DNA of 18,524 nucleotides, from the NCBI GenBank assembly GCA_963845245.1, contig CAWJRJ010000006.1, forward strand, positions 1 to 18,524, in the 5' to 3' direction. The notes beneath the pieces were generated by a model that saw nothing but the letters and a program-made list of their open reading frames with translations, made no database searches and was not told the origin of the DNA. The position numbers and the translations under genes were made by a program. This DNA is from Nitrospirota bacterium (GTDB lineage Bacteria > Nitrospirota > JACRHJ01). Positions 3,976 through 17,866 of this stretch are shown piece by piece. Every line of letters starts with the position of its first letter. Position 1 is the stretch's first letter.

Positions 3976-5901
3976 ATGCTTAAATACTCTTTAATACCGT
4001 TTCTGCCGTTAAGCGCGTTCATAATCTCCGGCCTTCTGGGCCACTGGCTGAAGGAACGCGCACACTGGCCCTCGATAATCGCGGTGCTGGCATCGTTCGT
4101 GCTCGCCGTATCCACGCTCTTCGACGTGATGGGCGGGAAGACCGTCAACACGGTCCTCTACTCATGGATACTGTCCGGCACGTTCGACGTCCATATCGGG
4201 TTCAAGATCGACCAGCTCACCGCCGTGATGCTGATAGTCGTCACCACGGTAAGCTCTCTGGTGCACATCTATTCCACCGGCTACATGCACGGGGACAAGG
4301 GTTACCCGAGGTTCTTCGCGTACCTGTCGCTCTTCACGTTCTCGATGCTCATGCTGGTTATGGCGGACAACTTCCTCCAGCTCTACGTCTTCTGGGAGGC
4401 GGTCGGCCTTTGTTCCTACTTCCTTATCGGGTTCTGGTACGAGAAGAAGTCCGCGTCCGACGCAGGCAAGAAGGCCTTCGTCGTAAACAGGGTCGGCGAC
4501 TTCGGTTTCGGCCTCGGCGTCATGCTGATATTCATCAGCTTCGGCACGCTGAACTACGATGCGGTGTTCGCACAGGTCGCGGGCCAGGCCGGGCAGACGG
4601 TAAGCATACTTGGCAACACCTACAGCCTGTTCACGGTGATAGCGCTCCTGCTCTTTACCGGCGCGATGGGCAAGTCCGCCCAGCTTCCGCTCCATGTCTG
4701 GCTGCCGGACGCGATGGAAGGCCCGACCCCGGTCTCGGCCCTCATACATGCCGCGACGATGGTTACTGCCGGCGTATTCATGGTCGCAAGGTGTCACCCG
4801 ATATTCAACCAGTCCCAGACCGCGCTTGACGTCGTCACCTGGACCGGCGGTATAACCGCGATATTCGCGGCAACGATCGCGCTCACACAGTATCGATATC
4901 AAGAGGGTCATCGCCTACTCCACCATAAGCCAGCTTGGGTACATGTTCGTCGCATGCGGCGTGGGCGCATACGCGGCAGGCATATTCCACCTGATGACCC
5001 ACGCGTTCTTCAAGGGCCTTCTCTTCCTGGCCGCAGGCAGCGTCATCCATGCCCTTTCAGGGGAGCAGGACATGAGGAAGATGGGCGCGCTTCGCAAGAA
5101 GATACCATGGACATTTATTACGTTCCTGCTTGCATCCATATCGATTTCCGGCATACCGCCCTTTGCAGGCTTCTTCAGCAAGGACGAGATTCTCTGGAAG
5201 GCCTACACCGCAGGGTCTGCCGGACATGCCGTCTATTTTTTGCTTGCGCTTGCAGCCTTTATTACAGCCTTCTATTCGTTCAGGCTGATATTCATGACTT
5301 TCTACCAGGAGTCGAGGGTCGACCATGAGGTCGCGCACCACATACACGAATCACCCAAAAACATACTGGTACCCCTTGTTATTCTTGCAGTGCTCTCGGT
5401 AGTCGCCGGTTTTGTCGGCGTGCCTGAGGTGCTGCATGGCTCGAACAGCTTCCACGGCTTCATGTCCCATGTGTTCGGTGAAGGCCACGAAGTTGCTGTC
5501 GAGCCCGAGGGTCTTGAAATGGACCATGATGCTGGTTTCCATCCTTATCGGTGCTGGCGGTATCGGGACGGCCTGGTTCATGTACATCGTGAAGCCGGAC
5601 TGGCCCGGAAAGATCGCGACTGCGCTTTCGCCGGTGCACAAACTTCTGTACAACAAATATTATGTCGATGAGATATACAACTTCGTATTCGTGGATTCGG
5701 TCAAGTGGCTCTCCACGCACTTCTTCTGGAACATCGTCGATGTGCATATCATCGATGGCATCGTGAACGGTTCGGCCTCGCTTGTAAATTCCACTGAGCA
5801 GGGTGCTAAGGAGGCTCCAGACCGGGTATTACAACCACTACGCATTCGGCATGGCCTTCGGTGTGTTTGTCGTTGTCGGAATATATATCTTCGCAAGATA
5901 A
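3976..5901 (+). CDS. nuoL: NADH-quinone oxidoreductase subunit L (apparent frameshifts near 4893, 5520 and 5795)
   Basis: GKSAQLPLHVWLPDAMEGPTPVSALIHAATMVTAG; then DIKRVIAYSTISQLGYM and FHLMTHAFFKGLLFLAAGSVIH; then NKYYVDEIY..IDGIVNG; then LRRLQTGYYNHYAFGM, ending at TAA 5899-5901. Confidence 0.95.
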
Positions 5902-5910
5902 GGGGAAAAA

Positions 5911-7485
5911 GTGACCGGTTACATAATGAACAGCATGGGTTACCGGATTTTAAGCCTTGTGGCCTTCCTGCCGGTTTTCGGCGCGCTGGGCATACTGCTG
6001 CACGTCAAGAGAAGCGACAACCTGGCACGCTGGATGGCCCTTGCGACGACCGCGGTGACGTTCATCGTCTCCATACCGCTCCTTTTGAATTTCGATACCA
6101 CCACACACAACATGCAGTTTGTGGAAAACTACTCATGGATACCTTCATGGAATGTCCACTACACGGTAGGCGTCGACGGCATAAGCGTGCTGCTGGTGCT
6201 TCTTACCACGCTTCTTTCGCTCATCTGCGTCATATCCTCCTGGAATGCCATTCAGACGAAGGTCAAGGAGTACATGATCGCCCTACTCCTCCTTGAAACG
6301 GGCATGATCGGCGTCTTCATCGCGCTCGACCTCTTCCTGTTCTACATCTTCTGGGAGGCGATGCTCATCCCGATGTTCCTGCTGATAATCATCTGGGGCG
6401 GGCCAAGGAAGATGTACGCGGGCATAAAGTTCTTCCTCTACACCCTGGCGGGCAGCGTATTTATGCTGCTTGGCATCATCGCTCTCTACTACCAGGGCGG
6501 ACATACCTTCGAGATCGTGAAGCTCATGGGCCAGAACTACCCGCTGGAGTTCCAGTATTGGGTGTTCCTGGCATTCTTCGTAGCGTTCGCCATCAAGGTG
6601 CCGATGTTCCCGTTCCACACCTGGCTGCCTGACGCGCATGTCGAGGCGCCGACTGCGGGCAGCGTTATCCTTGCCGGCGTGCTCCTGAAGATGGGCACCT
6701 ACGGTTTCCTGCGTTTCAACCTTCCGATGTTCCCGGCCGCCACCATGCATTTTGCGCCGTACATCCTTATGCTTTCTGTCATGGGCATAATTTACGGCGC
6801 GCTAGTGGCGATGATACAGAAAGACCTTAAAAAGCTGATTGCATACTCGTCCGTAAGCCATATGGGTTTTGTAACGCTCGGTATCTTCGCCTTCAATACC
6901 CAGGGGCTCGAAGGCGGTATACTCCAGATGCTGAACCATGGTGTGACCACCGGCGCACTCTTCCTTTGCGTGGGTATAATATACGAACGGACCCACACCA
7001 GGATGATCGCCGACTACGGCGGTCTTACCAAGCGGCTTCCGATATATGCCGTCTTCTTCATGATATTTACCCTTTCATCGCTTGGCCTTCCCGGCATGAA
7101 CGGGTTTATCGGCGAGTTCCTGATACTACTTGGCGCGTTCACGTCCCAGCGCATCTATGCGGTCATCGGCACGACCGGTATAATACTCGGCGCCGCATAT
7201 ATGCTGTGGATGTACCAGAGGGTGATGTTCATGGAGCTTAAGCCAAAGAACGAATCGTTGCTTGACCTTAGCGCGCGCGAGGTTATAACGCTTCTGCCGC
7301 TTGCGGTGCTGGTCTTCTGGATCGGTGTATTCCCGAACCCGCTCCTGGGAGTTTTGCACGAGACCGTGAAACACCTGCTTATACAGGTAAACGGCCAGGC
7401 ACAATTCGCAGCATCCGCCGAACTGGTATTTGAACTTTTAGTCGGTCCACAAGGAGTCATAGATGCCCTCTTTTTCCCTGGATAA
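5911..7485 (+). CDS. nuoM: NADH-quinone oxidoreductase subunit M
   Basis: GTG start; motifs FYIFWEAMLIPM, AIKVPMFPFHTWLPDAHVEAPTAGSVILAGVLLKMGTYG, KKLIAYSSVSHMG. The ORF overlaps nuoN by 23 nt, so the true stop may be earlier (TAG near 7441) if there is an indel near 7425. Confidence 0.95.
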   Translation: MTGYIMNSMGYRILSLVAFLPVFGALGILLHVKRSDNLARWMALATTAVTFIVSIPLLLNFDTTTHNMQFVENYSWIPSWNVHYTVGVDGISVLLVLLTTLLSLICVISSWNAIQTKVKEYMIALLLLETGMIGVFIALDLFLFYIFWEAMLIPMFLLIIIWGGPRKMYAGIKFFLYTLAGSVFMLLGIIALYYQGGHTFEIVKLMGQNYPLEFQYWVFLAFFVAFAIKVPMFPFHTWLPDAHVEAPTAGSVILAGVLLKMGTYGFLRFNLPMFPAATMHFAPYILMLSVMGIIYGALVAMIQKDLKKLIAYSSVSHMGFVTLGIFAFNTQGLEGGILQMLNHGVTTGALFLCVGIIYERTHTRMIADYGGLTKRLPIYAVFFMIFTLSSLGLPGMNGFIGEFLILLGAFTSQRIYAVIGTTGIILGAAYMLWMYQRVMFMELKPKNESLLDLSAREVITLLPLAVLVFWIGVFPNPLLGVLHETVKHLLIQVNGQAQFAASAELVFELLVGPQGVIDALFFPG

Positions 7486-8909
7486 CCTCGTCTCCATAGT
7501 CCCGGAGTCGATTGTCCTCTGCCTCGCAATAGCGGTCCTGATGTTCGACCTCTTCACCCCCAAGGAGAAAAGGCACTACCTGGCCTACTTGTCCGTCGCG
7601 GGTCTTGTGGTCGCGGCATTCGAGACGTGGCAGTTGAGGGGCTTGAACATCACTACCTTCAGCGGGATGTTCGTCCTTGACGGCTTTTCCATATTCTTCA
7701 AGATGCTCTTCTATATCGTTGCCGCGCTTGCGATCCTCATCTCGATAAACTACCTCAAGAACGAGCAGTCGGAGAGAGGTGAGTACTACGGCCTGATCCT
7801 GTTCGCAACCTCAGGCATGATGATAATGGTTTCCGGCGCCGACCTGATTACCATTTACCTGGGCCTTGAGCTTATGGCCCTGTCGGTATACATACTTGCC
7901 GGGTTCCTGCGCGGTTCCATGAAGTCGAACGAGGCGGCATTGAAGTATTTTCTGCTGGGCGCCTTCTCCTCCGGCATACTGCTCTACGGCATAGCCCTTA
8001 TCTTCGGCATCACAGGCACGACAAACCTTCAGGGAGATAGCCGCCTTTATACAGACCGGCAACCTTAGCAAGCCAGTCCTTATACTCTCGATGATCTTGA
8101 TGACTGCCGGTTTCGGGTTCAAGATCGCGGCTGTCCCGTTCCATATGTGGGTGCCTGACGTATATGAGGGCGCGCCGACGTCGGTCACCGCGTTTATGTC
8201 AGTCGGGCCGAAGGCGGCTGCCTTCGCGGCATTCCTCAGGGTGTTCATGGTAGCCCTCCCTGGCATCCAGCCTGACTGGACGGTTATACTGTCCGCCCTT
8301 GCCATTCTGACGATGCTGATAGGCAATGTCGTGGCAATCTCGCAGACCAACATCAAGAGGATGCTTGCATATTCGAGTATCGCGCACGCAGGGTACGCCC
8401 TCGTCGGTTTTGTGACAGGTGGAGCGGCTGGCATGTCGAGCGTCATGTTGTACCTCCTGATCTACGTGTTCATGAACTTGGGCGCATTCGGTGTGGTAGT
8501 CATGCTGCGTAAGGGCGGGGTGGCCAGTGACAACATAGAGGACTTCGCGGGCCTTTCAAAGAACCACAAGTTTGCCGCCATGCTGATGCTCATATTCATG
8601 TTTTCGTTGGCCGGGATCCCGCCGACGGCAGGCTTCATAGGCAAGTTCTATATATTCATGGGCGCGCTTAATGCCGGTTTCCTCTGGCTCGCAATCATCA
8701 CAGTCATAATGAGCACCATCTCTGCATTCTTCTATCTGCGCGTGGTGATTATTATGTATATGAAGGACCCCTCCGGCGAGTACGAGCTTTCGGCCCCTTA
8801 TACGATCAAGTTTGCCCTTGCCGTCGCCGCTTTCTGCGTGCTTTACATAGGCATGAACCCCGGCGGTATAATCGAATATGCGATCAGTTCCGTGGCCGGA
8901 CTGGTATAA
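7463..8909 (+). CDS. nuoN: NADH-quinone oxidoreductase subunit N (apparent +1 frameshift near 8033)
   Basis: ATG after AAGGAG; LGLELMALSVYILAG..SNEAALKYFLLGAFSS; the shifted frame gives FKIAAVPFHMWVPDVYEGAPT, NIKRMLAYSSIAHAGY, SLAGIPPTAGFIGKF. Confidence 0.95.
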
Positions 8910-8990
8910 ATAATATAATCCTTAAAAAGCCTCCGTTTTTTCTGCATTAAAATGCCAGATTTTCATCCAATTCCCTGAAAAGCCGTATTC

Positions 8991-9018
8991 TTGACTTACT
9001 GCCGGATTTTGATATAAT
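8991..9018 (+). promoter_or_regulatory. Sigma70-type promoter with extended -10
   Basis: TTGACT (8991-8996), 16-nt spacer, TG at 9010-9011 and a perfect TATAAT (9013-9018), followed by an AT-rich start region. Confidence 0.7.
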
Positions 9019-9024
9019 ATTATT

Positions 9025-9362
9025 AAGAAAGTATGAGAGGAAACCCGTTATGGGGGTCGGAACAGCGCAAAACGCTGTCCGTCTCTTGCCTCCTTTCGAG
9101 GCGGGCAGTAGGAGAGCGTGAAGCTGACCCCCATAATTTAAGGAAATTGAGGACAGGGGGAAGAAAGAAGGCATTCAAGGAGGGAAGATAAGACCTTCAG
9201 GACTTGCCTCCATCCTCAAGAAAAAAAAGATACCGCGCCGTCCACGAGGGCTTAAGCCACCGCTCATCCGTCGGGTGCGTGAAACCACCTAATTAGACAG
9301 GAGAAATCCTGCACTGACGGATAGGGATACAGGGACGGCTAACGCGGTATCTTGCTTTTTTT
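9025..9362 (+). ncRNA. Candidate structured non-coding RNA of unknown family (~340 nt)
   Basis: Lies downstream of the strong promoter and has no convincing ORF. Three closed domains pair 9048-9060/9124-9136, 9147-9153/9213-9219 and 9227-9243/9333-9353. It ends in a T-tract at 9356-9362. The strand is inferred from the promoter. Confidence 0.5.
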
Positions 9363-9369
9363 GTGGTCC

Positions 9370-9771
9370 TTAAACGAGGGCCTTTTTTATTTTCTCTTGT
9401 AGTTCCGGGGAGAGCTTCCTTGGACGTCCTTCAATATCGACAAATGCGTGACTGGTAGTACCTTCCACCAGTTTGATCCCGTCTCTTATTATCTCATACG
9501 TAAATCCAAGCCTGATGCCCTTGAATTCCGATATTGTCGTCCTTATGGTAAGGACGTCATCATATCTTGCCGGTTTGTGGTATTTGCAGGAAGCCTCCAG
9601 GACGGGTAGCATGTACCCCATGTCCTCAAGCTCCTTGTAGGCCATGCCCGATGACCTTATGTACTCTGTCCTCCCGATCTCAAAGTAGATTAGGTAGTTG
9701 GCATAATAGACGAAACCCATCCTGTCCGTCTCTGCGTAGGTCACCCTGTGTTCGAATTCGAAATGTTTCAT
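9370..9771 (-). CDS. Acyl-CoA thioesterase, YbgC/FadM (4HBT hotdog-fold) family, 133 aa
   Basis: Likely start at ATG 9771 (MKHFEFEHRVTYAETDRMGFVYYANYLIYFEIGRTE), plus YHKPARYDDVL. The ORF-track extension to 9930 runs through a terminator and is probably not translated. Confidence 0.9.
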   Translation of the reverse strand: MKHFEFEHRVTYAETDRMGFVYYANYLIYFEIGRTEYIRSSGMAYKELEDMGYMLPVLEASCKYHKPARYDDVLTIRTTISEFKGIRLGFTYEIIRDGIKLVEGTTSHAFVDIEGRPRKLSPELQEKIKKALV

Positions 9772-9882
9772 TAAAGAGAGGTTTGTCCTTTCTTGAAAAA
9801 ATAAGGGATTGATGTTGGAATGACTATGTCTCAGAATGATAAGTCGCTTCTCTGATAAATTCAAGTGATTATAGCCGAGAGG

Positions 9883-9914
9883 AAAAAAAAGAGGGCGGAA
9901 TTTCTTCCGCCCTC
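9883..9914 (-). terminator. Rho-independent terminator of the large multicopper oxidase gene
   Basis: The - strand reads GAGGGCGGAA-GAAA-TTCCGCCCTC-TTTTTTTT: a perfect 10-bp stem with a U8 tail, 26 nt after the stop codon. Confidence 0.9.
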
Positions 9915-9940
9915 CTGAAATAGCAGTCATGCCCGCTTAA

Positions 9941-12900
9941 TCAAGGCTGCGTAGTGGCAGATATCGCAGAGCTGTACGGGCCGAGTCCCGTAGAGGTCCT
10001 GGTTGCGATACGGAACCAGTAGGTAATGCCACGTGTCAAGCCGGTGATAGTCCTGGAAGATGTGGACCCACCGGAGACGCTATAAGATCCAACGCCAGAC
10101 GTGAAGGTTGCGTTCCTCGCACGTTGGATTGAGTAGCCCGTTGGTGTCAGTCCACTTGCGGGTGGAGTGGCTGTCCAGGTGAGGGGTACGGTGGTTGTGG
10201 TCGTGACGCCAGCGGCAAAATTCAAAGGAGCAGGCAGCTGCAGGTAGCCCGTGGTGATATTAGCTGTATTGGAGTTTGCAGAGTTGCCTACTGAGTTAAA
10301 TGCGAATACTCTGTACCAGTACCTGGTCCTTGGCGCGACCGTTGTGTCAGTGTATGTAGTTACGTTCGGGCCGACCGAGCCTAGTGTTGCCGGGCCAGTG
10401 AAGGAGGAGTTCGACGCCCTCAGGACCGTGAAGCCGGCCTCATTGTTTGAACGGTCAGTCCATCGCAGTGTCACTGTCGGTGCTCCTGATGCATCGTAGG
10501 TCCGCGTGAGAGCCAGGTTGCTTGGCGCGATGGGGAGAACATTCGGGATCGCGCTATTTGACTCAGCCGACGGTAGGCTGTTACCAAAAATGTTTGTTGC
10601 AACTACCGTGAACGTATAGGCAGTGCCGTTTGTCAACCCAGTAACAGTAACAGAGGTAGCGGCCGCTCCCAGCACTGTAGCTGTTATAGGCTGTGCTACA
10701 GTGCCTATATATGCGGTAGCAGTGTACGATATAATCGGGCTCCCGCCGTCATTGACAGGCGCTGTGAAGGTTACGGTTGCCTGCGCGTTGCCAGGTGTTG
10801 CAGTCCCTATTGTCGGCGGATAAGGCACCCCGAGCGGTATTATACTGTTGGACTGTGCCGACGGCAGGCTGTTTCCTGCCAGGTTCGTTGCAACTACCGT
10901 AAACGTATATGCAACACCGTTTGTCAGCCCTGTGATGGTATGTGTGAGTGTCAGTGAACCCGCGTTGGAGTCAACACCGGCCGCACCGCCAAGGCCAGGT
11001 ATTGGTGTCACTGTGTAGCCTGTAATCGGGCTGCCGCCGTCAAAGGCAGGCGCGGTGAAGGCTACGGTTGCCGTAGTGTTGCCTGCTGTCGCAACCCCTA
11101 TTGTCGGCGCATCAGGCACCGTGTACGGTATTACGGCGTTTGACATCCCCGACGGAGTACTGCTTCCGCCCAGGTTCGTCGCAACTACCGTGAAGGTGTA
11201 GGCGACTCCGTTAGTAAGCCCGGTAACAGTTACAGAAGTAGCGGCCGCTCCCAGCACTGTAGCTGTTATAGGCTGTGCTACATTGCCTATATATGCGGTA
11301 GCAGTGTACGATATGATCGGGCTGCCGCCGTCAAAAGCAGGCGGTGTGAAGTTTACGATTGCCTGCGCATTGCCAGGTGTTGCAGTCCCTATTGTCGGAG
11401 GATCAGGTAACGTGAACGGCGTTACGCTGTTGGATGGAGCCGATGGCAGGCTGTTTCCAAACGCGTTTGTTGCCGTTACCGTAAAGGTATAGGCGACTCC
11501 GAGAGGAAGCCCTGTGATGGTATGCGTGAGTGCGGTCGTGCCGGCATTTAAGTCAGTTCCTAATACACTGCCCGTAGCAGGTATTACTGTCACGGTGTAG
11601 CCAGTGATTGCGCTTCCTCCATTTGAGATAGGCGGAAAGAACTTAACGGTAGCCGATGCGATCCCTGCCGTTGCTGTCACTGACAATGGCGCATCCGGAA
11701 CTTTGGGCGTCCCGAGTATGAATGCAACCGGTCTCATCATGTCGTTTTCTTCGTGGCCCAGTAGGTGGCAGTGCAGGACATACTCCCAACCCAGGTTAAC
11801 ATAGTTGTCAACTAGTTGAGGGTTGCCTGTCGCCGGGTCAGTGACACTGATGGTGGCATGCAAAGGCTGTGTCACGTCCAGCGGACGTACACTGTCCGGA
11901 ACTGTAAACGGTAGCGTTGGCGCGACCGGCTGCAACGCCACGATACAGTCCTCCAGCGGGTTCATCAGGACGGTTTCCTTCCAGCCGAGTTCGTTTGGTG
12001 CAGGCGGTTTTATTGCTCCATCCCAGCCTACACGGTTGATCAACTGCACATTGAACAGGTGGAAATGGATCGCATGCGTATCGACGCCGTTATGGGTTAT
12101 CTTCCATATCTGGACCTCGCCGTTGTTAATCGTCTCGGTGAGCGGGTCGATGTAACCCAACGGGATCGTTACCTGGATATTGAAATTGGTTCCCGGAACT
12201 TCTAGGCCCATCGTGGCGTTCATTCGGCCATAATTAAGCTCAAAAAGCTCCTGTATGGCCTTCGGTTCCATCGGAGTCGTAATCGGCGCGGATGCCCCGG
12301 CCGGTGTGTAGTTCAGGGAGGTGTCCTGGATCCTAGAGTACGTGTCCGTGAAGGTGGCATTGAAAGGTTGGTTATAAGTTGACTCCGGAACTATTGGAGC
12401 TGCCTGGGTTGTGGTGTAGGCGGCTGGCCAGGCTGCCTCCAACGCGGCCAGGTTGAATGGCGCGGTAGCCGTCCCTGAAACCTGGAACTGCATGACGGTA
12501 CGGGTGTTGGGCCCGTAGCCAGGGAGCGTAGTGGGCGCGCCCCCGGTCGAGGTCTGGTCCGGGTCGCCCGAGTAGTAGTCGATGCGCGAGTCGAAAGCAG
12601 GCATAGGCGCTGGAGCGTCGTTATACATGATAACGTTATTAACCCCGGCCGGGACCTGGGAGAAGTCGACTATGACGTCCGCCCGCTCGGCAGGCCCAAG
12701 ATAGAGTGCCTTCTCTTGGACATTCAGCACCGTTATGCTCCTGCGGTTGTATTCATAACCGACAGGCCTGTTTGGAATAACAACGGGAGCCGGAAGGAAC
12801 CCGCCTTCGGTGCCTATCTGTATGAAATTCGGGCCCATCGCGGTCGGGTCGGGGAAGCCGCCGTCCCTTCCGTCCGGCATAGGCCAGCCCGCCGGCCATG

Positions 12901-15151
12901 CCGTAGTCGTGGACGCTGGTATCATCTTGACTTCCGTATTGGGCGATGCAATGGCAAGGGCGCCAGTTCCGCCGCCGCCAGAGATTGTAACGGTTGGGGC
13001 GGTGGTGTAGCCCGTCCCTGCACTTGTAACGGTGAGCCCGTTCACGACCCCGGTCAATGCCGCCGTCGCAGTTGCCGCCGTGGTGGCGCCGCCGCCCGAG
13101 AAGGATACTGCAGGCGCAGTGGTGTAACCTGAGCCTCCGGTTACAACCGTAACGGCGGTAACCGCGCCTCCAACCACCGTTGCTACCGCGGACGCTCCTA
13201 TGCCGCCGCCGCCAGTGATGTAGACGGTAGGAGCGGAGGTGTAGCCGACGCCACCGGTCTGGACAGCGATGCTGTTGACTACGTTTGTTATCGTCGCAGT
13301 CGCCGAGGCAGTGCCGCTTGAGAAGATTACACTAGGAGCGGAGGTATATCCGGAGCCCCCCGAGATAAGTGTGAGGCCCAATGGGTCCGCATAATAGAGC
13401 TGCAGGTTGAGGTAGCGGTCGTTGCAGGCGTTAAGTATACGGAACCTGTAAGGTTGACGCGTCACCGGGAGTACCGGGTAGGCGGTGCCGTTTACGACCG
13501 GTGTGTCCATGAAAGATTCCGGTGTGCCGGATGGGTTTGGCGTCCCGGGGTTCACAGGCCCTTCAGCGGGCGTAGTGCCTGCGAGCGGGTTCGTGACCTC
13601 GCCATGTTTCAGGCCGGCTGCTATTGTGACCGGGGGCCAGAACCATGGGCCGTAATCCCATCTGCCGCATGGGTTTGCACCGGAGAGGTCCGCCGGGTTC
13701 TGGTTAGTCATATAGACATGCGGGAACCACAGGTTGCCTTCCCCTGCCCATTTCCAGGTGGGGTCTTCGGCGGTCAGTTGTGCAGCGTTCGGCACGAAGG
13801 TCTTGTCCTGGATAATCAGGGGTATGCCCCAATGGTTGACGCCGCCAAGGTCAGGTATGGCTTTTACAAGCCCCGGGTTGATGCCCGAAGCGTTTGTCCC
13901 GGATATCAGGTCCTCTTCGACCTTGTCCGATATCAGGTAGCCGGCCGCCTCGCCCGCATAGACGCCCAGACGAGTTGTACCGTAGGCATGTTCGTGGTAG
14001 AACATCAGCCTGGCGCTCTGCTGGTTGGTGTAATACAGAGTGACCGAACCCTGGCCGGGGTCGTTCGTAGCTCCGTTGGCCGGCGCAGATGGCGATGAGC
14101 CGGCTATCACGTTACCTGACGCGTCAAACCACATGTCTGGCACGTTCTGGTAACTCAAGCCTCTGGCGTAGGAGCTTGTCTCTCCGAACGGAATAGTCCA
14201 CTGGTGCGGCGTGCCGTCGCTTATCCACGGTGTGGCTCCGCCGTGTAGATGGACGACCGCACGGTTCTGCAGATACATCTCGGACCCTCCGTTGGGTCCT
14301 GTCCCTGCTCCCATGTAAGTAGTGTCACAAGGGATGAATAGGTTGCCGCCGGCGCCTGTGGGCAGGTAGTTTGTGAATTTGATACGCACGGGCTTCCCGG
14401 CTTGGGCCAGGATAACCGGTCCAAGATATTGGGGCGGGTCTACCGCAAAGACCGGGCTTCCGGCTGCATTTAATATCGGAGAGCCGTTAGGATAAGTCAG
14501 GGGATAATGTTTGCTGACTGCGGCGATAGCCGGAGTCTCAATCTGCACATAACCGCGTAACTTGGTGCCTGTCGCAGGCAGGTCCGAGTGCATCTTTATT
14601 GTATATTCGACCAATGCGATCTCGTAATAATCGGCTGCCGGTGCAGTATATTTTGTCGATCCTGTCATATTTGTGAAAGGATATGTGGTTATATCCGCCA
14701 CCGCTACCGGTATGTACTGTCCGAGTCCGTTTGTAACGGCGGGTGCCGTACTCGGAAGCGACAAGACAGGCATCTGGTCGACGAATTTTCTAATACCTCC
14801 GGTTATGGCTCCGGTGGCCGGGTTGAGTGTAGGGAGCTGGCTGTTGGCGTAATTGGGTATAGTGCCGAAATAATCCGTGGTGGTCATTGGAGTAAATGGC
14901 GCGGCAACTAAGCTGATTCGTGTACTCTGTGTGACCTTTGTTCCCGCACGGGCCGCGGCGGCGCGGGCTGCAGCCTCCTTCCGTTGTTGGGATTTCATCA
15001 GGCTTCTCATAAACGGCTGGCCGGTAGCGGGGTTGATCGCTGGGTCTGTCGGCGGCTGTAAATCCGCTTGGGCAAGTCCTGCTCCCAAGGGAAGGGTCGC
15101 GGCAAAAGTTATTGCCGCAAATGTAAATAATAATTTCTTGATTATACCCAT
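9941..15151 (-). CDS. Large secreted multicopper oxidase with six C-terminal fibronectin type III domains (MofA/OmpB-like), 1736 aa
   Basis: RBS AGGAGG; signal peptide ending AGLAQA. Cu motifs: HLH (14243-14251), HEH (13988-13996), HAIHFH (12059-12076) and [13 protein letters not shown] (11735-11773). FN3 repeats of the form P.AP....ATAG...ATV.F..P...GGS.I..YT...GLTNG.AYTFTV.ATN..G.S.PS..SN. Confidence 0.93.
9944..11700 (-). repeat. Array of six FN3 domains; the first four form an A-B-A-B duplication with a 582-bp period
   Basis: 10656-10700 and 11238-11282 are identical over 45 nt, followed by one mismatch and 31 more identical nt. At protein level, [34 protein letters not shown] occurs twice and NAG...LTHTITGL occurs twice. 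Confidence 0.9.
12941..13381 (-). repeat. Four tandem ~35-40-aa Gly/Thr/Ala-rich repeats ([11 protein letters not shown]) inserted in the oxidase core
   Basis: [36 protein letters not shown] and [12 protein letters not shown] lie between YYADP and NTEVKM. Confidence 0.85.
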
Positions 15152-15583: not shown

Positions 15584-17866
15584 CTACGGTAGTGTCTTAA
15601 CGGCTGCAATGTTGGAGAATGGGGAGTCGCCGACAGCGTTGTTGGCCTGTACCCTGTAGTAGTACTTAGTGCCCCTCGCTACAGTGGTATCGGTGTAGGC
15701 GGTAATCCCCGCTCCGGTGTGGAATGTCGCCACCGTCGTGAAGGCGGTGTTCGCCGACCTCTGGATAGTGAACCCGGTCTCATTATTGGAGTTCTGCGTC
15801 CAGGTCAAGCGCACGGTCGGCGGGTCCACAATTGCGGCAGACGGAGTCCCAACGAGTTTCGAAGGCGCCGCCGGGGCGGTGTTCGTAGGAGTCACGATGT
15901 TTGATTGGGCCGATGCGGGGCCATCCCCGTTCGCATTCGTCGCAATCACCCTGAACGAGTAGAGGGTGTTGTTGGTCAGCCCAGTCACCGTTATCGGGCT
16001 TGCGGCCCCTGTGGTCGTTACTCCGCTGCTTGCGATAACCGTATACCCAGTTATAGCGCTGCCGCCGTCGGCAGGAGCGGTGAAGTTCACAGTTGCGGTG
16101 GTATTGCCCGCCGTTGCTGTCACGCCGGCCGCCGCCGCCGGTATACCATCAAGCAGAGTCACGAGGCTGAATACAATCGGTCGCATCATGTCGTTTTCTT
16201 CATGGCCCAGCAGATGGCAGTGCCATACATACTCCCAGCCGAAGTTGGTCAGGTGCGTTGGTGACGCTAATCGCCGGTTCCGTTACAGGGTCTATGCTGC
16301 TGAACGATTCATGGTGGAACCCATCGGCCTGTGTCAGATCCAGCAGGCGAATGCTGTTGGGAACCGCGAAGGGGAGACCCGTTGGTGCAACTGGCCTCAA
16401 CGCAACAATCGCGTCTTCCAGCGGGTTCATCCTGACGGTTTCCTTCCAGCCCAGTTCGTTGGGGTCCGGCGGCCTGATCGCCCCGTCCCAGCCGACCCGG
16501 TTGATCAACTGCACGTTGAACAGGTGGAAGTGTATGGCATGGGTGTCAACGCCGTTATGGGTGATCTTCCAGATCTGGGTTTCGCCGTCCTGTCAGTGAT
16601 CTCGGTGACCGGATCAATGTAGCCGTAGGGGATGGTCGTCTGGGTGTTGAAATTGGTAAACGGCAGCTCAACCCCCAGCGTGGCATTCATACGTCCATAA
16701 TTGAGTTCAAACAGCTCCTGTATGGCCTTCGGCCCCATCTGGACCGTTCCGCTATTTATGTCCAGGGAGGTGTCCTGAATCCTCGAATATGTGTTATTTG
16801 CCGCCCCATAGGCCACTTCCGGCACGATCGGAGTGGGCTGGGACTCGATGAAGGCTGCCGGCAACTGTGCCTGAAGGTTGGCCAGGTTATATGGAACCGG
16901 TTTTCCCTTAGTCGCCGCTTTCGTTACCACAAACTGCATTATGGTACGGGTGTTTGGCCCGTAGCCAGGCAGCGTGGAAGGCGCTCCGCCAATACTGGTC
17001 TGGTCCGGGTCGCCAGTGTAGTAGTCGAGGCGAGTGTCAAACGCCGGTACAGGGGCGGGCGCATCGTTATAGAGGATTATTTTTGAGCCGGGCTGGCTTT
17101 GGAGAAGTCAACTATGACGTCCGCACGTTCCGCAGGACCAAGAAACAATGTCTTGTTCTGCACATTCAGGACTACTATGTCCCTGCGGTTGTAGTTATAG
17201 CCTGACCGGCGTATTCGGCAGCACCGCCGGTGCCGGCAGGAAACCGCCCTCGGTACCGATCTGGATCATCGACGGGCCTGCCGTGGCCGGGTCAGGCACA
17301 CCGCCATCCCTGCCATCCGTGGGCCAGGTCGCAGGCCATTTCGTCGAGCCCGGATGCGGGATAGCGGGGACCATTTTGACTTCCGTGCGAATGTTGTTTG
17401 TCTGCATAATAAAGTTGCAGGTTCAACATACGGTCATTGCACCCGTTCAGTATCCGGAACCGGTAGGCCTTGGGCTCCACCGTCAGGACGGGGTACGGGG
17501 TGCCGTTGACCAGGGGTGTGTCCATAAAGGCTTCCGGCACCAGTGGACGGGTTGGGCGTCCCGGGTGAATGTCGGGTCGCCTAAGGGGCGTCGGTGCACG
17601 GGTTGGACTGGCGGATGCGCAGCAGGTGAGGCTGAACCGGAGGCCAGAACCAGGGCCGTAGTCCCACCTGCCCATCGCGTTTACGCCATCGAGTCGTCGA
17701 GCCGGGTTCTGGTTCGGCATATAGACGTGCGGGAACCAGAGGTCGCCGGTGTTGCCGGTATCGCCGGCGTTGTTCCCCAGTTCCAGGTGGGGTCCGTGAC
17801 TGGCAAGTTCGTGTGGCGTCGACAAAGGTCTTGTCCTGGATTATCGAGAGGTATGCCATAGCGGTA
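15584..17866 (-). pseudogene. Second multicopper oxidase-FN3 paralogue, 5'-truncated and multiply frameshifted (true pseudogene or sequencing/assembly artefact)
   Basis: Colinear pieces in shifting frames match the 1736-aa protein: [98 protein letters not shown] (16524-16541), [13 protein letters not shown] (16184-16222), then two FN3 domains. Shifts occur near 16260, 16592, 17090, 17200 and 17400, with several more in 17550-17850. Confidence 0.85.

Follow-up and report, generated by a model that had tools for sequence, protein, structure and literature searches.

An 18,524-nt stretch of a Nitrospirota genome, hereafter the window, carries on its forward strand, at 8991–9362, a unit consisting of a near-consensus sigma-70 promoter, an RNA of ~335 nt in three domains (D1, D2 and D3) and a tract of seven U residues (U7). 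We regard it as very likely that this unit is a real, functional noncoding RNA (ncRNA) gene of a new family. It has its own promoter, an end made of a helix plus a U tract, three covarying domains, no conserved open reading frame (ORF) and a presence in RNA libraries. The best overall explanation, to which we assign a probability of about one half, is a new stand-alone structured ncRNA that would act via a ribosome-linked mimic, namely of the pairing between the Shine–Dalgarno (SD) sequence and the anti-SD tail of 16S ribosomal RNA (rRNA). A preliminary description of this locus had proposed a stand-alone ncRNA from a poorly described family, a view that is borne out by the null result in Rfam, by stems that covary and by RNA-library contigs covering the region. 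So far, all members come from a single small lineage, at class level, of uncultivated Nitrospirota.

Three conserved domains and their covariation

Folding of the forward strand between 9025 and 9362 gave −138.9 kcal/mol (z = −6.28), with 0 of 100 shuffles being as stable, and the reverse strand of the same region folded with z = −5.35. A promoter scan by itself returned two sites against a shuffle mean of 1.4 (s.d. 1.1), that is, not above chance. Given a promoter scan at chance level and a reverse strand that folds well, the case rests on comparison with relatives.

The three self-closing domains reported earlier reappear in the RNAalifold consensus of eight homologues, and their order is identical in all members (Table 1). 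Folded singly, D1 forms one unbranched hairpin of 28–32 bp in 14 of 14 sequences, though its middle 40 nt barely align; this middle part is variable and covarying, and the family's apical stem CCGUCUC/GRGRCGG is capped by a 12-nt loop. After a linker of 9–62 nt follows D2, whose inner helix, GAAGG/CCUUC in the window and 5–7 bp long in the family, bears a large purine-rich loop on top. D3 is closed across members by GAUACCGCGC/GCGCGGUAUC, with a U-rich run immediately after, and contains the inner helices P3.2 (GUCC/GGAC), P3.3 (CAUCCGU/ACGGAU), P3.4 (GGUG/CACC) and P3.5 (CAGG/CCUG).

For D3, the structure was drawn by hand on a MAFFT alignment of 13 sequences and turned into a covariance model (CM), R1, of 163 positions and 35 pairs, which matches the window copy (G000:C6:9229-9360) with 97.1 bits. 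Standard pairs fill 95.7% of the cells of these 35 pairs, as opposed to 36–42% when the 3′ partners are slid by 1–3 columns. In eight pairs both partners changed. None of 500 shuffles came up to the real alignment in pairing, in covariation score or in the count of compensated pairs. Individual compensations include GGUG/CACC versus GGCG/CGCC (five sequences), GUUC/GAAC versus GUCC/GGAC and GUUU/AAAC, and CAGG/CCUG versus UGGA/UCCA.

In the variable helices of D1 and D2, MAFFT lost the register, so the counts for these two domains rest on alignments fitted by CMs. In D2 (fitted by CM R3), 17 pairs were 91.2% paired, with eight changed on both sides and 2 of 500 shuffles as good; in D1 (fitted by CM R2), 17 pairs were 95.0% paired, with six changed on both sides and 7 of 500 shuffles as good. 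Pairing in the slid controls was 37–64%. CM-fitted alignments lean toward the model structure, and related sequences may beat shuffles without any structure, so the slid controls and the hand-checked compensations are the stronger evidence. All three domains preserve their helices via compensatory changes; the stems are both kept and covarying in relatives.

The RNA strand is the forward one. Both the promoter and the U tract point that way, and several conserved pairs alternate between U-A and U-G, G-U pairs favoring the forward strand. Model R2 scored D1 of the family members at 69–88 bits on the forward versus 21–37 bits on the reverse strand, the window copy at 78.1 versus 31.4 bits.

Homologues and distribution

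Genomes and metagenome contigs of the lineage yielded 14 distinct homologous sequences, with a median pairwise identity of 63% (range 55–97%) and a length of 313–436 nt from D1 to the U tract. One of them, L007, is incomplete, as its contig ends inside D3, leaving 13 complete homologues. The RNA, ~335 nt here, is ~350–470 nt long in relatives, which have an added leader with a boxA motif, a 5′ hairpin (D0) and longer arms. The shortest forms are the window copy (L001) and a close relative (L026), which are 93.5% identical.

BLASTN matched 8 of 41 genomes, including the RNA's own; the others were 7 of the 11 other genomes from the same family, with none of the 29 genomes from other families of the phylum being matched. 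An exact scan with the best-conserved stretch, a hairpin of 27–30 nt, across one genome per GTDB species returned seven records, all of them metagenome-assembled genomes (MAGs) labeled Nitrospirota or Nitrospirae. In metagenomes of the Joint Genome Institute, an 18-nt core was found at 13 loci, of which seven hold the entire RNA (one identical to a genome copy) and six are unrelated. Viral origin was considered and rejected, since an 18-mer scan of viral contigs gave a single, unrelated locus. That locus (L032) and two metagenome loci (L023 and L024) have in common the 18-mer GTCTCTTGCCTCCTTTCG and the spacing of a downstream motif, and no other motifs of the RNA; they are probably one unrelated, perhaps phage, sequence.

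CM R1 found the RNA in 8 of the 12 genomes of the family, which represents its entire order and class in the genome set. The four genomes missed all belong to genus g5; one of them, G007, is 96% complete and the rest are 75–88% complete. The D1 model R2 likewise found nothing in these four genomes, nor in G041, a genome of another class. When the thioesterase adjoining the RNA in G004, of the same genus, was used as a query, G007, G010 and G011 returned only a paralogue of 33–35% and G009 returned none; with no orthologous thioesterase present, the locus interval is not comparable there. When 151 genomes were sampled evenly from the phylum, the sole R1 match outside the class was G041, described below. 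A degenerate pattern run on 401 genomes of the phylum had suggested a wider spread, with 59 matched, but the reversed-pattern control also matched often. Its matches outside the class were G+C-rich; six that were fetched (L076–L081) reached at most 11.4 bits with filters off, and L076 looked coding. The wider spread was therefore dropped.

Promoter, 3′ end and absence of a coding sequence

The near-consensus promoter noted in the preliminary description, with TTGACT at 8991–8996, a 16-nt spacer and TATAAT at 9013–9018 preceded by TG, has a counterpart in the equivalent position at every one of the 14 distinct loci, of the form CTTGAC(A/T)-N16/17-TA(T/C)A(A/C)T. Transcription is predicted to start near 9025. 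At the other end, the D3 closing helix (10 bp, G+C-rich) is followed by U7, and a U-rich run occupies the equivalent position in 13 of 13 complete homologues; the rightmost RNA-library contig ends at 9358. The helix, however, encloses ~110 nt. A terminator consensus scan left the U7 tract uncalled because the scan's ‘loop’ would be the entire D3; it called a hairpin at 9365–9382. This second hairpin (Table 1) overlaps the stop codon of a convergent thioesterase gene and may therefore be a back-up or two-way terminator.

As described before, the unit ends in T7 convergently with the thioesterase gene (4HBT family, 9370–9930, reverse strand), and no credible coding sequence follows the promoter. 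The longest ORFs across the RNA region encode 52 aa on the forward and 75 aa on the reverse strand; among the 14 homologues no ORF is conserved, the longest ones varying in place, frame and sequence. The RNA gene is single-copy in its own genome.

RNA-library evidence

Six RNA runs contain 15–17% of the sampled words of the window. We compared its segment 8800–9500, at a likeness of at least 80%, with the contigs of one DNA run and of three metatranscriptomes from three studies. The metatranscriptomes gave 2, 16 and 12 contigs; all pieces shown lie inside 9028–9358, with word depths of 29 to 647, and nuoN, the promoter and the thioesterase gene are free of them. The uncovered parts, 8800–9027 and beyond 9376, are no proof of transcript ends, because the flanks of relatives are possibly too diverged and contigs were used. 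RNA-library contigs cover the region, with strand and ends not visible in them; as a moderate hint rather than proof, they suggest an RNA that is produced, and in abundance.

A contig of 368 nt, flanked on either side by sequencing adapters, spans 9049–9358 and thus everything from D1 through D3; in place of D2 it has 66 different letters, which marks it as a relative's copy. The alternative of a cluster of small RNAs, which the preliminary description had left standing, is made less likely by this contig and by domains that always occur together, in the same order, with one promoter and one U tract.

In another metatranscriptome contig (run X18, record 13), the 3′ end of D2 (...CCUCCAUCCUCAAGAAA, ~9222) is joined directly to 9028, upstream of D1, via a common AAGAAA. 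Template switching could have produced this as an artefact, a relative could carry a permuted or tandem variant, or a D1–D2 fragment could have been ligated or circular.

Two invariant loops resembling SD and anti-SD sequences

The apical loop of D1 is the same 12-mer in every sequence, and this 12-mer is unique in the genome. Part of it, CCUCCUUUC, equals the last nine bases of the host's own 16S anti-SD tail (...GGAUCACCUCCUUUCUAAGGA). GGAGG stands in the D2 loop of 13 of the 14 sequences, in most of them as AAGGGAGGUGA; the window copy reads AAGGAGGG, and the exception, L002, reads GGAUG. The two loops can pair across 7–11 bp. Across all 14 sequences, the most stable duplex of D1 loop and D2 interior has −12.0 to −16.2 kcal/mol, while shuffled D2 interiors average −7.1 to −10.1 kcal/mol; in 11 sequences, 0–4% of the shuffles reach the observed energy. 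With the 16S tail, the D2 interior forms a duplex of −12.3 to −22.2 kcal/mol, better than that with the D1 loop.

A boxA-like leader

At 12 of the 14 loci, a motif of the form (G/T)(T/A)TCTTTGA(A/C/T)(A/G)A, or a one-off variant of it, lies 25–35 nt past the promoter and before D1. In most of these 12 loci it is followed by UUCUCUG(Y)(R)GUG, then by the 5′ hairpin and then by D1. The exact 10-mer TCTTTGAHAA is present at seven loci and one-off variants at five. The host's own rRNA operon has the same 10-mer ~100 nt before 16S and ~90 nt before 23S, and G006 has it ~100 nt before 16S; boxA classically sits at such positions upstream of 16S and 23S. The 2.88-Mb genome contains the 10-mer 39 times when both strands are counted, so that a chance match in a 60-nt leader is expected in ~4 of 10,000 cases. 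The motif is one change away from the gamma-proteobacterial boxA consensus GYTCTTTAANA given in a published survey (PMC5725501). On the strength of the match to the rrn-leader 10-mer, the placement, the closeness to the consensus and the genome-wide rarity, we read the leader motif as an rrn-type boxA that would be bound by NusB/NusE. By its own account, that survey left noncoding RNAs out of consideration (PMC5725501).

In the window copy and in L026, the promoter abuts D1. L003 has the same −10 region (TTTGATATAATATTA) upstream of its boxA, and the short form therefore looks like a leader deletion.

Between the −10 element and the start, the promoters of the RNA gene (L001–L030) are A+T-rich, for example TATAATATTATTAAG. 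The rRNA promoter of the genome (L083 1480-1560) has TTGACA-17-TAGGAT and then TCGCACC, which is G+C-rich. Should discriminator rules apply in this host, the stringent response may act in opposite directions on the RNA and on rRNA, even though both have boxA.

A D3-like module in an rRNA spacer

The match in G041, which belongs to another Nitrospirota class, extends over the full length of the D3 model with 30.2 bits (30.1 bits and E about 1e-6 with filters off). It lies in the 23S–5S spacer of an rRNA operon (Table 1), starts a few bases past a boxA-like GTTCTTTGACA and stops 10 nt short of 5S. The module retains AUCCGUAGGGUGCGUAACCACC nearly letter for letter and forms the closing helix, P3.2 and P3.3 with different bases. 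The D1 and D2 models found no match at the G041 locus. Its equivalent arm is a plain hairpin with the strands CUGCCUUGCCU and AGGUGGGGCAG, in which CUUGCCU pairs with AGGUGGG; it looks like the same pairing made in cis. The 286-nt spacer is unusually long; that of the window's own genome measures 97 nt and has no D3-like element. Together with the boxA leader of the RNA gene, the spacer module ties the RNA to rRNA transcription; the spacer link is a single case. A likeness of D3 to 16S helix 45, considered in passing, was dropped; comparison with rRNA gave nothing past short words.

Table 1. Positions of the RNA gene's parts in the window and of the related rRNA-spacer element
Feature	Position	Strand	Remarks
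Sigma-70-type promoter, TTGACT-16 nt-TG-n-TATAAT	8991..9018	+	11/12 consensus matches
Short 5′ leader, no boxA, no 5′ hairpin (D0)	9025..9047	+	D0 and boxA present in 12/14 relatives
D1, single long irregular hairpin	9048..9135	+	Base UAUGGGGG/CCCCCAUA; apical stem CCGUCUC/GAGGCGG
Invariant 12-nt D1 apical loop UUGCCUCCUUUC	9086..9097	+	Identical in 14/14
D2	9145..9220	+	12-bp outer helix UUGAGGACAGGG/...CCAUCCUCAA, A-rich internal loop, inner helix
SD-like AAGGAGG in D2 apical loop	9177..9183	+	GGAGGUGA in most relatives; complementary to D1 loop and 16S tail
D3, multi-branched module	9229..9360	+	Closing 10-bp helix GAUACCGCGC/G(C/A)GCGGUAUC
U7 tract abutting D3 closing helix, likely 3′ end by predicted intrinsic-type termination	9356..9362	+	
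Second, canonical terminator-like hairpin GGUCCUUAAACGAGGGCC, then UUUUUUAUUU	9365..9392	+	Consensus scan
23S–5S spacer, 286 nt, containing the 206-nt D3-like structured element	L041 1491-1776	-	G041

A possible mode of action and its rivals

We propose tentatively, at somewhat less than even odds, that the RNA works by ribosome-linked SD/anti-SD mimicry. It would then be part of the ribosome's sphere. In most lineages, the boxA leader would recruit the Nus antitermination complex, which could shield the long untranslated RNA from Rho, aid its folding and couple its synthesis to that of rRNA. The anti-SD copy in D1 would pair with the SD-like GGAGG(UGA) of D2 and so display a mimic of the SD/anti-SD helix; alternatively, the open loops might offer a mimic of the 16S tail and an SD decoy. 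Such a mimic might bind and buffer a factor of the 30S platform that reads the SD/anti-SD helix or the 16S 3′ tail. Candidates would be bS21, for which OLE RNA provides a precedent, or alternatively Era, IF3 or a 3′-end maturation enzyme; Era binds the 16S 3′ end. The outcome could be a tuning of translation initiation or of late 30S maturation.

Genes for bS21 (PF01165) are found in four of the five class genomes checked. The window's own genome has two of them, ~300 nt apart (G000:C11:198072-198230 and 198523-198678), and the other bS21-positive members have one each.

In its fullest form, the proposal would be of a lineage-specific ribosome companion RNA, made with boxA and Nus, partly embedded in the rRNA operon in one class, freed as a gene of its own here, and displaying an SD/anti-SD copy that captures a 30S-platform or 3′-end factor (bS21, Era, IF3 or a nuclease). 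We judge this extended version rather unlikely. Were it true, the OLE/bS21 principle would have evolved a second time, independently, and rrn-type antitermination would for the first time be known for a bacterial ncRNA gene that stands alone.

Several observations weigh against the overall explanation. As to the loops, the 9-mer CCTCCTTTC occurs 44 times in the genome, so that agreement with the 16S tail at one site is nothing unusual; loops rich in purines pair readily with loops rich in pyrimidines; and in L001, L026 and L029, 7–11% of the shuffles reach the observed duplex energy. Both loops are nearly invariant and therefore do not covary with each other, which leaves loop pairing and any mimicry inferred from complementarity. 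A TCTTTGA-type motif is absent from 9019–9047 of the window copy and likewise missing in L026. The rRNA-operon link comes from a single genome of another class, G041, of whose class-mates, all fragmented MAGs, 0 of 3 match, and a comparison of the RNA with its own rRNA operon returned only 9- to 13-mers at E>0.2. Co-occurrence with bS21 is not strict: G004 has the RNA without a PF01165 match, and G007 has bS21 without the RNA. Four of the five genomes of genus g5, among them the 96% complete G007, lack the RNA, which is therefore dispensable or replaceable. Finally, the library contigs do not reveal expression level any more than strand or ends, and an RNA library may contain DNA; the DNA run gave two short contigs only (8971–9360), too short to provide a flank control.

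The alternative that survives best, possible if on the unlikely side, holds that the two loops make an architectural kissing contact, within or between molecules, that would keep together a compact fold or an assembly of RNA only, in a scaffold, ribozyme or ribonucleoprotein without a tie to the ribosome, the SD/anti-SD likeness being a by-product of pairing between a purine-rich and a pyrimidine-rich loop. The loop duplexes of all 14 sequences, at −12 to −16 kcal/mol, fit this well, as do three ornate covarying domains with many conserved unpaired bases such as GGGAAAAAGG and CCUCAAAG, which are typical of tertiary-structured RNAs, and an rRNA similarity that does not go beyond 9-mers. Cryo-EM of ROOL, GOLLD and OLE has reportedly shown assemblies held by kissing loops. 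Unexplained by a purely architectural contact, however, are loops that are exactly the 9-mer of the 16S tail and the full GGAGGUGA, the rrn-type boxA at 12 of 14 loci and the D3 module inside an rRNA operon.

A trans-acting base-pairing regulator appears distinctly improbable. Here the D1 loop would mask SD sites of many mRNAs, the D2 loop would block 30S subunits that are free by pairing with their 16S tails, or both, with the loop–loop contact as the off state. In its favor, complementarity of the D1 loop to SD sites of the GAAAGGAGG type is given by construction, duplexes of the D2 interior and the 16S tail have the energies stated above, and the promoter is strong. A loop matching every strong SD site would, however, have no target specificity, and D1 and D2 would suffice, leaving D3, about half of the window's RNA, unexplained.

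That the locus is not an independent gene, being instead a nuoN 3′ untranslated region, a cis-regulatory leader, a mobile-element RNA (omega RNA, retron or intron fragment) or a decaying remnant of an rRNA operon, we judge very improbable. The setting between nuoN and a thioesterase gene, from which the preliminary description had suggested collecting homologues, applies to five of the eight genome loci, where the RNA directly follows nuoN, and not to the remaining ones (L002, L003 and L007), where neighbors differ; this, and the D3-like piece in an rRNA spacer, would favor a dependent element. Against it stand the RNA's own promoter, conserved at 14 of 14 loci, the varying neighbors, a convergent gene downstream, the single copy number, the absence of any gene for a reverse transcriptase, TnpB or IscB beside the RNA, and a lone viral match that is unrelated. 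Decay is also countered by the strong covariation. Finally, we give next to no credence to a sponge for a CsrA/RsmE-type protein showing GGA in its loops: the RNA is rich in GGA, and the D2 loop of L002, ACAGGAUGU, resembles the CsrA SELEX (in vitro selection) consensus, but CsrA (PF02599) was found in 0 of 5 class genomes while control genomes matched, only one or two exposed GGA loops are present rather than an array, and known sponges have a far simpler fold.

Genomic surroundings

Upstream of the RNA gene, the nuoN-like gene ends at 8909. It is split into two ORFs, 7463–8068 and 8091–8909, which correspond to Pfam profile positions 3–67 and 86–294. A nuoL-like ORF at 3976–5328 covers just positions 1–170 of the PF00361 profile and is followed by overlapping ORFs in other frames (window 3976–6296). 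Either these are frameshifts or stops in two complex I genes, or they are assembly errors of the MAG.

Beyond the thioesterase gene, 9941–15151 on the reverse strand encodes a 1736-aa protein with five fibronectin type III (fn3) repeats and a weak multicopper-oxidase-like stretch, and a second fn3 protein follows at 15584–16189 on the same strand. These two stand where era follows the thioesterase gene in L004–L006. The era GTPase gene (with a KH domain) is convergent to the RNA gene, directly adjoining it in L003 and one gene off in L004–L006, and thus one or two genes distant at four of the eight genome loci. This proximity may be plain synteny among relatives.

Comparison with known RNAs

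Rfam 15, with 4227 models including OLE, 6S, SRP, RNase P, tmRNA, riboswitches, raiA, ROOL and GOLLD, gave 0 matches at gathering scores in the entire window. At E<=10, the segment 8850–9450 returned four noise matches (13–16 bits, E 3.5–7.2) to snoRNA and small-RNA models, and the RNAs of five other members gave nothing at E<=1. The preliminary description had failed to match the region to common RNAs by eye, and this search found no confident match either. In full-text searches of the openly accessible literature, no description of such an RNA was found. In the literature thus covered, the combination of a boxA leader on a stand-alone ncRNA, a module in an rRNA spacer and an invariant loop pair that copies the anti-SD tail and an SD site is undescribed. 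The RNA appears to be a new family that uses known principles, anti-SD mimicry and boxA antitermination, in a new combination.

Not many large structured RNAs are still to be discovered in bacteria, and each one has opened new biology. Limits here are uncultivated hosts, a small lineage and a function that is inferred; the support for the gene itself consists of 14 divergent sequences, covariation in three domains, a conserved promoter of its own and RNA-library presence, together with absence from Rfam 15.

Like 6S RNA, RNase P RNA and tmRNA, the RNA is stand-alone, strongly promoted, highly structured and a few hundred nucleotides long. Unlike it, each of these is present elsewhere in the genome, and none matches the locus: 6S, a long irregular hairpin with a central bubble of which a genome normally has one housekeeping copy, lies at G000:C21:88773-88951 (103.1 bits), with the present locus being three separate domains; RNase P RNA (RF00010) lies at C14:99712-100085 (314.9 bits); and ARAGORN places one tmRNA elsewhere. 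With rrn antitermination leaders and boxA-regulated genes, 12 of 14 loci have in common the boxA motif of their own genome's rrn shortly 3′ of the promoter; the transcript differs in being neither rRNA nor mRNA, and the window copy in being without the element. The raiA motif, ROOL and GOLLD are likewise multi-domain RNAs supported by covariation, with no known reaction and found by comparative genomics, but Rfam gave no match to them and the distribution here is far narrower (8 of 12 genomes, one class).

The closest comparison is OLE (RF01071), in mode of action and not in membership. Each is a large and ornate bacterial ncRNA that stands alone and whose biochemical function is uncertain, and each contains a copy of its own host's anti-SD and an SD-like sequence. 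In OLE, according to a published study, stem P6 consists of a perfect copy of the host anti-SD paired with an SD-like strand and is bound by bS21, with matching phenotypes (PMC12054373). The mimic of OLE thus lies within one stem, whereas here it would form between the apical loops of two domains. OLE is ~600 nt long and found in Bacillota, as opposed to ~340–470 nt and a Nitrospirota host here; no RF01071 match was obtained; and its neighbors are oapA and oapB, whereas those here are nuoN, thioesterase and era genes, with no oapA-like neighbor seen. No paper joining OLE and boxA was found within the full texts searched. If mimicry is indeed how the RNA acts, decoy-RNA sequestration of ribosome-platform factors would have evolved more than once, and this family would be a second, simpler system (~340 nt) for what OLE-like RNAs do.

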